Below, piece by piece: positions 28,520 to 35,425 of a stretch of 64,000 bases of DNA. The stretch's first letter is position 1; each line of letters opens with the position of its first letter. The notes below the pieces were generated by a model, which had not been told where the DNA came from, searched no databases, and saw only the letters and a program-made list of their open reading frames with translations. The stretch covers positions 150,318 through 214,317 of the forward strand of contig CAVOQP010000006.1 of the NCBI GenBank assembly GCA_963698385.1. The letters run 5' to 3'. Both the position numbers and the translations under genes were made by a program. Source of the DNA: an uncultured Acidimicrobiia bacterium (lineage in GTDB: Bacteria > Actinomycetota > Acidimicrobiia > Spongiisociales > JAENVV01).

Positions 28520-29601
28520 GTGACCTCTCGGCCGTTGGGGAAGATCGCAACCCAGAGCTTGCCCGGGGGCACCTGGAGTGCAGCGCCGGAGGCATCCGTG
28601 AGATCGAACACCTTCGAGGTCGACGACCGTGACCACGTCCCCTTGGCGACGGCCCCGTTCGAGAAGACGAACGCATTGCCGGACCCGACGGTGTCCATGG
28701 CGGGGACGCAGGACCCCTGGTCGGCGGGTGGGCACTTGGAGTATCGATCGGCGAAGAGCACCACGATGGTCTGGGCCGTGATCGTCTCCTCAGTGGTCGT
28801 GTCTCCCTTGTCCGGGAAGACCGTGTGGGGCTTGGTGCCAGCGAAGCGGAGGTACCCCGACCCGTCGAAGTGCCAGGTGACGTCTTCCATGTCGTCGGAC
28901 CAATCGAACGTGATGGCGAGGGCCGGTTCGGTTCCCCGCAGGGGCCCGAAGTCGAAGAATCGGGGTGGGGGGTCGTCCTCGTAGCCTCGCCTGTCGGCTA
29001 TCTCCCGGAGGAGGGTGGTGTCGACATAGAGGTTGTGGGGTGCCGAGCGGTGGGAGACGCGGAACGCAGCCGGAGGCTCCTCCCCGATGAGGTGGACGTC
29101 GAGGCTGCGGATGAGCGACTGCACCCATGCCTGTGCCCCCGAGATCGTGAACGTGGCTCCGAGTGGGGCCAGGAGGGTCGGGTCTGTGGGTCGCCCTGAG
29201 CGGTTCGGGCCGAGGTAGTCGGTGTCGGACTGGAGGAAGAGGGCGATGAACCGAGTGAGACCTGCTTCGACGAGCATCTCATAGACGGCGTCGGCGTCCT
29301 CCAGGCCGGACTGTGGCCTTGCGTTCCAGTGATTGTCGACCTTCACGGCCATCACCCGGCGGTTGATCGAGTCTTCATCGGCGACGAACAGGCCGTTGAG
29401 GGGTGACTCGAACCCCGCCGGTGGTTCGGTGGTCGTGGTCGTCAGGATGGTCGTGGCAGGGATCGTGGCCCGGGGTTCGGTGGAGCCCTGGGTGGATTGT
29501 GGGGTGTCTGTGGGAGCGGATGTCCCCGTGGTGTCGTCGCCACCACAGGCGGCGACGACCAACAGGAGCGTCAGCAGGAACGCGATGAATCGGATGCGCA
29601 T
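28513..29601 (-). CDS. DUF3048 (YerB-like) lipoprotein
   Basis: ATG at 29601 is in frame with the track ORF. MRIRFIAFLLTLLLVVAACGG lipobox. VMAVKVDNHWNARPQSGLEDADAVYEMLVEAGLTRFIALF matches the DUF3048 N-domain. The upstream part of the track ORF (LVLVWLVLVLV) is simply the translated tandem repeat. Confidence 0.6.
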   Translation of the reverse strand: MRIRFIAFLLTLLLVVAACGGDDTTGTSAPTDTPQSTQGSTEPRATIPATTILTTTTTEPPAGFESPLNGLFVADEDSINRRVMAVKVDNHWNARPQSGLEDADAVYEMLVEAGLTRFIALFLQSDTDYLGPNRSGRPTDPTLLAPLGATFTISGAQAWVQSLIRSLDVHLIGEEPPAAFRVSHRSAPHNLYVDTTLLREIADRRGYEDDPPPRFFDFGPLRGTEPALAITFDWSDDMEDVTWHFDGSGYLRFAGTKPHTVFPDKGDTTTEETITAQTIVVLFADRYSKCPPADQGSCVPAMDTVGSGNAFVFSNGAVAKGTWSRSSTSKVFDLTDASGAALQVPPGKLWVAIFPNGREVTW

Positions 29602-29644
29602 GAGATGGCGCAGGATAGGGGGAGGGGCGTTATCGGCGGTCACA

Positions 29645-29735
29645 CGCCCGAGCACGAGCCAGACAAGCACGAGCACGAGCACGAGCCAGACAAGCACGAG
29701 CCAGACAAGCCCGAGCACGAGCCAGAGCGCGTTGT
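29645..29735. repeat. tandem repeat block (CACGAGC / CAGACAAG units) sharing the GCCCGAGCACGAGCC core with the 27046-27145 block
   Basis: Direct reading: gcccgagcacgagccagacaagcacgagcacgagcacgagccagacaagcacgagccagacaagcccgagcacgagccagagcgc. Confidence 0.8.
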
Positions 29736-29826
29736 GGGACTGCGCCACCACCCACGGCCCCCTACCCCGCACGAGTCCTTGCTGCGCTCGGCCGATGCGG
29801 GGGCCCCTTCCCCCCGCCTGCGGCGA

Positions 29827-29866
29827 GGGGACAGACATGTGTTGCGACGATGCGTTGTCTGTCCCC
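29827..29866 (-). terminator. 11-bp perfect-stem hairpin ~100 nt downstream of sodN, followed by a second 7-bp hairpin (ccccagc-gaa-gctgggg); candidate sodN terminator
   Basis: ggggacagaca-(18 nt)-tgtctgtcccc read directly. No U-tract, as is usual in high-GC genomes. Confidence 0.4.
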
Positions 29867-29967
29867 CCAGCGAAGCTGGGGGGAAGGTCCTGCCCCGGAG
29901 CGAAGCGAAGGGGGAGGTAGGGGGGAACGCGCGGGCCGAGCCTTCTGCCCCCGTGTCTGAACTCGCG

Positions 29968-30384
29968 CTAGCCGGGCGGATACACCCCGACGTTGGCCGA
30001 TTCGGCGGTCTGCCAGAAGATGTCCGCGATCTCATCGATGAGGCGAACCAGTTCCTCGGAGACTGCCGGGTCCATCGACTTCTTGGCGTCTCCGGCCTGC
30101 TTGATCGCTTTCCAGAACGTGTCGTGGAGTTGGGGGAACGCTTCGAGGTGGTGGGGCTTGAAGAAGTCCGTCCATAGGACCGACAGGTGGTGCTTCACCA
30201 ATTCGGCACGCTCCTCCTTGATCGAGATGGCCCTGGCACGGAAGACGTCATCCTCGGAGGCGTGGTACTTGTTGGCGCATTGAAGGACCGACTTGGCCTC
30301 GATCATCGCCTGGGCGGGGTCGTAGACGCCACAGAAGAGATCGCAATGGGCATGGGCGACGGTGGGTGGACGGAAGAGGCGCAT
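29968..30384 (-). CDS. sodN: nickel-containing superoxide dismutase precursor
   Basis: 138 aa. Pro-peptide MRLFRPPTVAHA followed by the Ni-hook HCDLFCGVYDPAQA. Overall similarity to Streptomyces SodN (..IKEERAELVKHHLSVLWTDFFKP..IFWQT). Position 5 of the hook is Phe (ttc) rather than the usual Pro. Confidence 0.85.
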   Translation of the reverse strand: MRLFRPPTVAHAHCDLFCGVYDPAQAMIEAKSVLQCANKYHASEDDVFRARAISIKEERAELVKHHLSVLWTDFFKPHHLEAFPQLHDTFWKAIKQAGDAKKSMDPAVSEELVRLIDEIADIFWQTAESANVGVYPPG

Positions 30385-30430
30385 GGGTGGCTCCTGGGGG
30401 TGGCTGACCTGCTGAAGATACACTCCCCGG

Positions 30431-30841
30431 GTGTCGAAGCGATGGGGACTCTTCCAAGTAGCCGAACACTCCATGGCGCCCGCCCTCCGATCGGGTGACC
30501 GAGTGGTGGCGATCCATCGTCCACTCGCGGCCGGTGTAATCGTGGTGTTCGAGGCCGCCGATGGGATGGTCATGGTGAAGCGAGTCGTCGGGCTCCCCGG
30601 GGACACCGTCACGATCGGCCACGGGATGGTGTTGGTCAACGGGACGCCACGCGAGGATGTCCTCGACACACCCGGTGAAGGGTCGTGGAGCATCGGTCCG
30701 GGGGAGTGCTTCGTGCTCTCCGATGCCAGGGACTTGACCTTGGCCGACAGTCGTACGTTCGGCCCGATCGACGTCTCGTCGATCCTGGGCACCGTCGCGT
30801 TCCGCTATCGACCGCTCTCCCGGATGGGACGCCCTCGCTGA
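30431..30841 (+). CDS. sodX: S26 signal-peptidase-like NiSOD maturation protease
   Basis: Divergent from sodN with a 46-bp gap. EHSMAPALRSGDRVV (S26 catalytic Ser box) and VKRVVGLPGDTVTI box. 136 aa, as for SodX. Confidence 0.65.
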   Translation: MSKRWGLFQVAEHSMAPALRSGDRVVAIHRPLAAGVIVVFEAADGMVMVKRVVGLPGDTVTIGHGMVLVNGTPREDVLDTPGEGSWSIGPGECFVLSDARDLTLADSRTFGPIDVSSILGTVAFRYRPLSRMGRPR

Positions 30842-30866: not shown

Positions 30867-31855
30867 CTACCAGCTGGCGATCGTGCGGATGTAGTTGGCG
30901 CGTTCGTAGGCGGCAGGGTCCGGCGAGTTCTTCTGCGAGAGGCTGCCCCGGGCCTGGTCGATCGAGACGTAGTCCCGCTCGTCAAACCAGTCGGTGACCC
31001 CCGTGAGGACCGTTGCCAGGTACTCGGGTCCGTGGAGGAGGAGCGCCGATGCCATTCCAACCGCGTCGGCCCCCGCCAGGAGAAGCTTCACGGCTCCCGC
31101 GGCGTCGTGCACACCGGTTGATGCGCAGAGCGAACCGGGGACCCGGCCGTGAAGGATCGCCATCCACCGCAGGACGTGGCGCATCTCGGCCGGGTCCGAG
31201 AGAACCAGGTTCGGCTCCACCCGCATCGTGCCGAGGTTGATGTCGGGCTGGTAGAAGCGGTTGAAGAGCACCAGGCCGTCGGCGCCAGCTTCGAAGACTC
31301 GTCGAGCCATGTCGGGGAGCGAGGAGAATGCCGGCCCCAGCTTGACCGCGAGCGGGATCTCGATCTCGGACCGCAGACCGTCGATGAGAGCGATGTACCG
31401 GGTCTCCAACTCCGTCGAGGTCGTCTCCGGGTCAGCAGCGACGAAGTAGATGTTGAGCTCGATCGCGTCGGCACCGGCGTCTTGTAGTTGGTGGGCGAAC
31501 CGCACCCAGCCGCCTTCGGTGTACCCGTTGATGGACGGGATGATCGGCATCGACACCGCCTCCTTCGCCTCCGCCAGGTGCCGGAGGTACTCGTCCGGCC
31601 CGGTGTTGTAATCATCCATCTCGGGGAAGTACCCGGTGGCGGCCTCTGCGAAGACCCCTGCCCCGAGTTCCAGCCCGTGGTGGATCGACATCGCGTCATG
31701 CTCGATCTGCTCCTCGAACAACGACGGGAGCACCGCCGCCCCGGCCCCGGCTTGTTCGAGCTTGCGCAGGCCACTGACCGTGCCGGTGACCGGTGAGGCC
31801 GTGGCGATGATCGGGCTCGAGAGTGAGAGCCCGAGGTAGCTCGTTGTTGTATCGA

Positions 31856-31859
<4 letters not shown>
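30867..31859 (-). CDS. dihydroorotate-dehydrogenase-like (DHOD family) protein of the type co-encoded with pyruvate:ferredoxin oxidoreductase
   Basis: TIM-barrel PyrD-like sequence (LSLSSPIIATASPVTGTVSGLRKL...INGYTE...ELNIY...VKLGP...). Start overlaps the PFOR stop (translational coupling). Confidence 0.6.

Positions 31860-35425
<3,566 letters not shown>

Follow-up and report, generated by a model that had tools for sequence, protein, structure and literature searches.

We analyzed a 64,000-nucleotide stretch of the genome of an uncultured Acidimicrobiia bacterium (assembly GCA_963698385.1, contig CAVOQP010000006.1; from here on, the window) that carries, at positions 29968 to 30841, the gene of a nickel superoxide dismutase (NiSOD), sodN, head to head with sodX, the gene of its putative maturation protease. 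The locus very probably encodes a functional NiSOD belonging to a distinct subfamily, along with the protease that matures it, and the mark of this subfamily is the residue at position 5 of the nickel-binding hook, where the proline of the canonical enzymes (Pro5, in the numbering of the mature protein) is replaced by phenylalanine or, in some relatives, by tyrosine or rarely methionine.

The sodN gene lies on the reverse strand (29968 to 30384, with the ATG at 30384) and encodes a precursor of 138 amino acids plus stop. The protein passed both family models, Pfam Sod_Ni (PF09055; E value of 3.6e-40, 137.9 bits, cut-off 25) and TIGR02753 sodN (139.5 bits, cut-off 90), and matched the Streptomyces NiSOD chains in the Protein Data Bank (PDB) at ca. 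1e-35. A Shine-Dalgarno sequence, AGGAG, can be read directly at 30391 to 30395 (reverse strand), 6 nt ahead of the ATG, and an equivalent AGGAG or GAGGAG precedes sodN in related loci as well. On the forward strand, sodX (30431 to 30841, 136 amino acids) encodes a Ser/Lys peptidase of the S26 family that passed the Peptidase_S26 model (6e-21, 75.5 bits, cut-off 22.9); its start is a GTG, with no other start codon in frame ahead of the catalytic SMAP motif. Between the start codons of the two genes lies a divergent intergenic region of 46 bp (30385 to 30430). Direct reading and the family models thus bore out the gene identities, the head-to-head layout, and the spacing given in the initial annotation.

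The SodN translation begins with a pro-peptide of 12 codons, MRLFRPPTVAHA (30349 to 30384, reverse strand), followed by HCDLFCGVYDPAQ at the mature N terminus. The A-x-A type site before His1 is the putative cleavage site by comparison with the Streptomyces and Prochlorococcus systems, and the pro-peptides of homologues, 11 to 20 residues long, nearly all end in (V/T/L)-A-H-A. The Ni-hook that follows, His1-Cys2-Asp3-Leu4-Phe5-Cys6-Gly7-Val8-Tyr9, occupies 30322 to 30348 (reverse strand; codons cat tgc gat ctc ttc tgt ggc gtc tac). The codon in place of the canonical Pro5, ttc at 30334 to 30336 (reverse strand), is two substitutions away from any proline codon, as had been pointed out. The nickel ligands His1, Cys2, and Cys6 are present and were invariant in 194 aligned sequences and in 81 loci; Asp3, Tyr9, Glu17, and Arg47 are also present, and the second-sphere residue Tyr62 of the Pro5-type enzymes aligned with a phenylalanine (Phe62, precursor residue 74; 30163 to 30165, reverse strand). 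Compared to the published hook motif, H-C-X-X-P-C-G-X-Y, the protein fails at position 5 only. Surveys of genomes and transcriptomes have relied on this nine-residue hook to diagnose NiSOD (for instance PMC4460010), and it has been described as conserved and necessary for binding and catalysis. Because the Pro5 of the motif is lacking, the sequence places SodN in a variant NiSOD subfamily and not among the canonical members under the nine-residue definition.

The initial annotation had considered Phe5 an unusual residue, either a natural variant or an error. To judge by the homologues, it is a natural variant and not at all unusual. Among the best 120 homologues retrieved from a collection of 5.8 billion proteins (74 to 100% identity to the window SodN), 117 have the hook HCDLFCGVY, and the other three have Tyr5, Met5, or an alanine at position 7. 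In a scan of genomes that each represent a species, at least 524 proved to encode a SodN relative, and in the best 80 of these loci, almost all labeled Acidimicrobiia, the hook was HCDLFCGVY in 80 of 80, a count that is partly biased, since one of the six peptides used as seeds (HAHCDLFC) contained the hook; the unbiased counts are those of the 120 homologues and of the two sets described below (50%-identity representatives and Tyr5-seeded homologues). Phe5 was thus found in all 81 assemblies, window included, encoded by TTC in 60 and by TTT in 21. The nine hook residues were invariant in these 81 loci, with synonymous variants at every hook codon, and the ratio of nonsynonymous to synonymous divergence (dN/dS) of related loci against the window sodN had a median of 0.13 at a dS of ca. 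1.1. The nearest locus, in a metagenome-assembled genome of Acidimicrobiia (L059), was 93% identical. These patterns indicate that Phe5 is held by purifying selection; the alignment places it as a common residue in the related lineage, conserved across the whole clade.

To delimit the subfamily, we searched 1.84 billion representatives of 50%-identity clusters exhaustively with HMMER, which gave 804 matches, and inspected the best 150. The hook was intact in 103 of these, with Pro in 90, Tyr in 8, Phe in 3, and Met in 2 at position 5, and Pro5 took over below ca. 63% identity to the window SodN. Tyr5 marks a sister group: a homologue search seeded with a Tyr5 representative recovered 113 Tyr5 and 6 Phe5 hooks, with source names such as Ilumatobacter sp., Ilumatobacter coccineus, and Mycolicibacterium sarraceniae, as well as the RefSeq entry “MULTISPECIES: superoxide dismutase, Ni [Mycobacterium],” which stands for a cluster of 338 member sequences. 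Two of these proteins come from complete genomes of Mycobacterium/Mycolicibacterium and are Tyr5/Phe62 NiSODs of the Acidimicrobiia type: P0386, encoded at locus L081 of a complete Mycobacterium genome (GCA_900637135.1, LR134353.1, 173322 to 173744), and P0390. Their presence there probably reflects horizontal transfer.

A neighbor-joining tree of 114 nonredundant mature sequences, constructed with positions 5 and 62 masked, put every good-quality non-Pro5 sequence inside one clade. On this tree, the loss of Pro5 is essentially one old event that defines the subfamily, and a residue other than proline is the ancestral and conserved state of the clade. Within the clade there were many interchanges between Phe and Tyr, which are one base apart, and Pro was never regained. 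The nearest outgroup of the clade, P0157, has Pro5 with Phe62; for this reason, the change from Tyr62 to Phe62 appears to have preceded the loss of Pro5. A candidate for a second origin, P0233 (174 amino acids, Tyr5/Phe62 among marine-type sequences), was rejected as a probable assembly chimera. Over ca. 26 N-terminal residues (the pro-peptide and HCDLYCGVYDPA) it is similar to the Tyr5 clade, its body is of the marine/cyanobacterial type (HCDGPCG relatives), and its C terminus is frameshifted. We also discounted two Met5 sequences that are frameshifted, P0172 and P0170, the latter a Met5/Tyr62 sequence of poor quality that fell outside the clade. The best reading of the sequences is a relaxed subfamily hook, H-C-D-L-[F/Y/M]-C-G-V-Y.

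Position 5 is not the only residue that sets these proteins apart. In a comparison of 131 non-Pro5 and 63 Pro5 mature sequences, His1, Cys2, Asp3, Cys6, Gly7, Tyr9, and Glu17 were essentially invariant in both groups, and Arg47, present in the window, was kept in 111 of the 131 non-Pro5 sequences. Position 62 was Phe in 129 of 131 non-Pro5 sequences versus Tyr in 57 of 63 Pro5 sequences, and Phe62 was found in 120 of 120 members of the Tyr5 set. The non-Pro5 group is further marked by Leu22, Val35, Phe71, and usually Ser56, and by a clade-specific C-terminal tail, G-V-Y-P-P (29974 to 29988 in the window, reverse strand), whose residues G133, Y135, P136, and P137 were invariant in the alignment (A1). 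Most Pro5-type sequences lack this tail, as do the chains of the Streptomyces crystal structures.

The AlphaFold2 model of the window SodN, computed from a 43-sequence alignment, was a confident bundle of four long helices (mean predicted local distance difference test [pLDDT] of 86). Foldseek matched it with high significance to Streptomyces NiSOD structures only (1T6U, 1Q0D, 1T6I, 4NCQ, and 3G50, among which are structures of the Y9F and D3A mutants), with template modeling scores of 0.90 to 0.94 and root mean square deviations of 0.8 to 2.9 Å, the values for the apo forms being 0.8 to 0.9 Å. As for the geometry of the hook, Pro5 is said to be a cis-peptide in the NiSOD crystal structures (Barondeau 2004, Wuerges 2004). 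Active hook peptides, made of the first 6 to 12 residues with HCDLPCGVY, bind nickel and have been modeled with a trans Leu4-Pro5 bond (PMC5722923). Since such trans-modeled peptides are active, a non-cis geometry at residues 4 and 5 is compatible with nickel binding and turnover, and by analogy the Leu4-Phe5 bond is probably trans. Our best guess is that the aromatic side chain of residue 5 would be buried against Phe62.

The protease gene is a constant companion of this variant. A SodX homologue was found immediately upstream of sodN and divergent from it in 80 of 80 loci, and in an Ilumatobacter genome and the complete Mycobacterium genome the Tyr5 gene likewise has a divergent SodX-like neighbor (at 2140 to 2415 in L081 of Mycobacterium, 92 amino acids, and at 2055 to 2486 in L084). 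The catalytic Ser14 (SM.P motif; 30470 to 30472 in the window, forward strand) and Lys50 (KR motif; 30578 to 30580, forward strand) did not vary in any locus that could be aligned there (78 and 79 of the 80, respectively), nor did the GD and DS..G boxes. The distance from one gene to the other is between a few tens and ca. 240 bp, according to which start codon is taken, and the 46-bp spacing is common to the closest relatives only. In Streptomyces coelicolor, sodN (SCO5254) and sodX (SCO5255) are likewise adjacent and their intergenic region is conserved (PMC3919588), so that the layout found in the window is the ordinary actinobacterial arrangement and nothing special. Regarding the family assignment, the window SodX scores above the cut-off of the generic model for signal peptidase I, and the SodX-like neighbors of Ilumatobacter (38.6 bits) and Mycobacterium (20.5 bits) scored, like the window protein (see below), under the cut-off of the NCBIfam sod_Ni_protease model (TIGR02754). 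Because of these low scores, automatic annotation probably lists the SodX of this subfamily under the name of a generic signal peptidase I, a likely misnaming.

Among characterized systems, the closest are the NiSODs of S. coelicolor and Streptomyces seoulensis (1T6U and 1Q0D), with which the window SodN shares ca. 50% identity over the mature protein, the four-helix bundle, a pro-peptide with cleavage context AxA before His, the residues His1, Cys2, Cys6, Asp3, Gly7, Tyr9, Glu17, and Arg47, and an adjacent sodX. It differs from them in having Phe5 for Pro5, Phe62 for Tyr62, Leu22, Val35, Ser56, and Phe71, plus ca. 10 extra C-terminal residues ending in GVYPP. The engineered P5A-NiSOD of S. 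coelicolor (Basak, Zambelli, Cabelli, Ciurli, Maroney 2022, J Inorg Biochem 234:111858) also lacks a proline at position 5; however, it is a point mutant made in the laboratory that carries a small alanine in a Tyr62 background, whereas the window SodN has a natural, conserved, bulky aromatic residue together with the co-occurring changes. The hook metallopeptides differ in being peptides that keep Pro5 and whose activity is below that of the enzyme. With regard to the protease, SodX of Streptomyces and Prochlorococcus (TIGR02754) is, like that of the window, an S26 Ser/Lys peptidase encoded beside sodN with SM.P and KR motifs, but the window protein is longer (136 amino acids versus a model of 90 positions) and falls below the curated cut-off.

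We propose that the system would work as follows. SodN would be synthesized with its 12-residue pro-peptide, and SodX, as suggested by homology with Streptomyces and Prochlorococcus, would cut between AHA and H, after Ala12, so that His13 becomes the N terminus (His1). The freed hook would then wrap nickel through the amine and the axial imidazole of His1, the amide nitrogen and the thiolate of Cys2, and the thiolate of Cys6, the four-helix bundle would assemble, and cycling between Ni(II) and Ni(III) would dismutate superoxide. Residue 5 is not a ligand; its role in the canonical enzyme is conformational, and in this subfamily the position is taken by a large hydrophobic side chain, which is Phe in most Acidimicrobiia and Tyr in Ilumatobacter-like proteins and some from Mycobacterium, with Met as a rare third.

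Several points weigh against a functional NiSOD with a cognate protease. Our literature search found no biochemical data for any non-Pro5 NiSOD, and sequence and structure searches of a copy of the PDB found no entry with a residue other than Pro at NiSOD position 5. The AlphaFold model is uninformative on the hook, since residues 11 to 19, the junction of pro-peptide and hook, had a pLDDT below 50, a value that, for a model, fits a disordered apo hook. The second-sphere residue Tyr62 is lost in the clade along with Pro5, and the association between positions 5 and 62 is essentially one evolutionary event, and so weak as evidence of covariation; with all the changes tracing to one branch, it does not amount to statistical covariation. 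Finally, SodX scored 23.7 bits with TIGR02754, below the cut-off of 63.25.

Going beyond function as such, Phe5 might be an adaptive redesign of the active-site pocket and not just a tolerated substitution, packing on Phe62 and the tail and altering anion access, peroxide release, or redox tuning, a tentative idea that we consider possible but not the likelier course of events. The restriction of position 5 to Phe, Tyr, or Met over a deep divergence agrees with it, as do the strict tie to Phe62, with an outgroup (Pro5/Phe62 in P0157) that suggests a permissive order of change, and the repeated interchange of Phe and Tyr within the clade with no return to Pro. Nevertheless, the residue has a single well-supported origin and phylogenetic inertia accounts for the association equally well; moreover, P0233, the seeming second origin, has the look of a chimera, and P0170, the exception with Met5/Tyr62, carries a frameshift. 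With similar reserve, one may picture a large, environmentally abundant subfamily, comprising most Acidimicrobiia and some mycobacteria, that builds its hook without the proline turn, in which an aromatic residue 5, Phe62, and GVYPP would form a distinct pocket, with the Leu4-Xaa5 bond in trans or in a rare non-prolyl cis form and with altered anion access or kinetics.

It is improbable that the non-Pro5 proteins have instead lost or changed their function and are inactive paralogues, or proteins that use another metal or serve another redox role, on the grounds that a hook short of the proline turn could not fold properly and that Tyr62 is absent. They do depart from a motif called diagnostic and necessary, Tyr62 is gone as well and a conserved C-terminal tail has been added, and the literature search found no experimental characterization. 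Tyr62 is a second-sphere residue of NiSOD that has been studied by mutagenesis, and the Y62F mutant of the S. coelicolor enzyme reportedly keeps considerable activity (Herbst et al. 2009). Loss of function is hard to reconcile with invariant metal ligands, Tyr9, Asp3, and Glu17, with a hook more conserved than any other segment of the protein, and with a protease gene that keeps an intact catalytic dyad beside sodN in all the loci examined; in addition, for the engineered P5A-NiSOD of S. coelicolor (Basak et al. 2022), the Ni-hook is said, in the title of that report, to form still without Pro5. Together with the active, trans-modeled hook peptides, this title indicates that hook formation can do without the proline. 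A sequencing or assembly error hiding a true Pro codon, whose sole basis is the expectation of an invariant Pro5 raised by the published motif, has next to no chance, since it would need two base errors at once in a gene whose remainder is under clean purifying selection, and it is excluded by the conservation of Phe5, with both TTC and TTT in use, across 80 independent genome assemblies, the same hook being shared by nearly all the nearest homologues. The reading we retain is that of a working NiSOD of a separate subfamily with its own maturation protease.

As to precedence, the literature search found no paper with HCDLFCGVY or HCDLYCGVY and no meaningful discussion of sodN in Acidimicrobiia, and two papers on NiSOD evolution do not discuss the hook. 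Databases already name the proteins of the subfamily “superoxide dismutase, Ni,” and the tolerance to the loss of Pro5 is already anticipated experimentally. What appears to be undescribed is the natural subfamily itself, along with its signature of Phe62 and GVYPP and the fact that cultured mycobacteria and Ilumatobacter have it.

The 46-bp region between the two genes contains candidate promoter elements. A candidate −10 hexamer for sodX, TACACT (30419 to 30424, forward strand), ends 6 nt before the GTG, and a candidate for sodN, TATCTT (30420 to 30415, reverse strand), lies ca. 30 nt ahead of the ATG, so that the TANNNT hexamers of both strands overlap at 30415 to 30424. From this arrangement, overlapping divergent promoters between sodN and sodX are a reasonable inference, and the sodX mRNA may be leaderless, judging by the position of TACACT. 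A scan of the region for the sigma-70 consensus gave no promoter. The sole terminator-like match, at 30425 to 30439 (reverse strand), was a weak 5-bp stem spanning the sodX start codon and was not counted. Both hexamers lie within the motif GAGTGTATCTTCAG of the 46-bp region, which is conserved in the three closest loci (the window, L059, and L001). In 13 Phe5 loci (L026, L052, L054, L057, L060 to L065, L071, L072, and L077), a different upstream motif, CGCTATTCTGGC...ACAGGAT, was found ca. 45 nt ahead of the sodN ATG, where the group of the window has GAGTGTATCTTCAG instead. The two motifs suggest at least two promoter/operator designs within the subfamily.

Downstream of sodN, ca. 80 to 160 nt after its stop codon, there is a long imperfect hairpin (29806 to 29887, reverse strand) with 32-nt arms that are 81% complementary. 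The hairpin region (191 nt) had a folding energy of −98.9 kcal/mol (z = −3.2 versus shuffled sequences) and no T-tract, and an Rfam scan of 29400 to 30600 matched no family. The hairpin could be a T-less actinobacterial terminator, an element of the sodN 3′ untranslated region, or a REP-like repeat, and whether it belongs to the sodN unit is uncertain. Farther along, in the gap of ca. 370 bp from sodN to a DUF3048 lipoprotein gene (probable start MRIRF..., near 29598), there is a tandem repeat of AGCACGAGCCAGACA-like units (29642 to 29726; periods of 6, 15, 21, and 27; ca. 4 to 5 copies). The long open reading frames (ORFs) that cover this stretch on both strands are probably artifacts that the repeat and a high G+C content produce. 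On the other side, beyond sodX, an ORF of 1,189 amino acids (31856 to 35425, reverse strand) reads as similar to pyruvate:ferredoxin oxidoreductase and is directly followed by a dihydroorotate dehydrogenase-like gene of 330 amino acids (30867 to 31859, reverse strand; Pfam DHO_dh, 28.8 bits). If the assignment of the former holds, an oxygen-sensitive enzyme adjoins the superoxide dismutase locus.

The basic picture of how NiSOD works is unchanged by these findings, but the nickel-hook motif of the textbooks is drawn too narrowly. Motif filters that require Pro5 would silently drop the entire clade. At least 524 genomes, each representing a species, encode a relative of the window SodN, and marine, sponge, soil, and sediment samples commonly contain Acidimicrobiia. 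In this clade, evolution has optimized natural hooks with residues other than Pro5, and they are available from cultured sources (Ilumatobacter, and Mycobacterium strains whose genomes are complete); they could show, beside the P5A and Y62F mutants, what Pro5 and Tyr62 add to hook folding, nickel loading, and catalysis. If the interpretation of an aromatic pocket were true, the motif would be redefined as H-C-X-X-[PFYM]-C-G-X-Y, and the subfamily would be a natural experiment on the contribution of the cis-proline.

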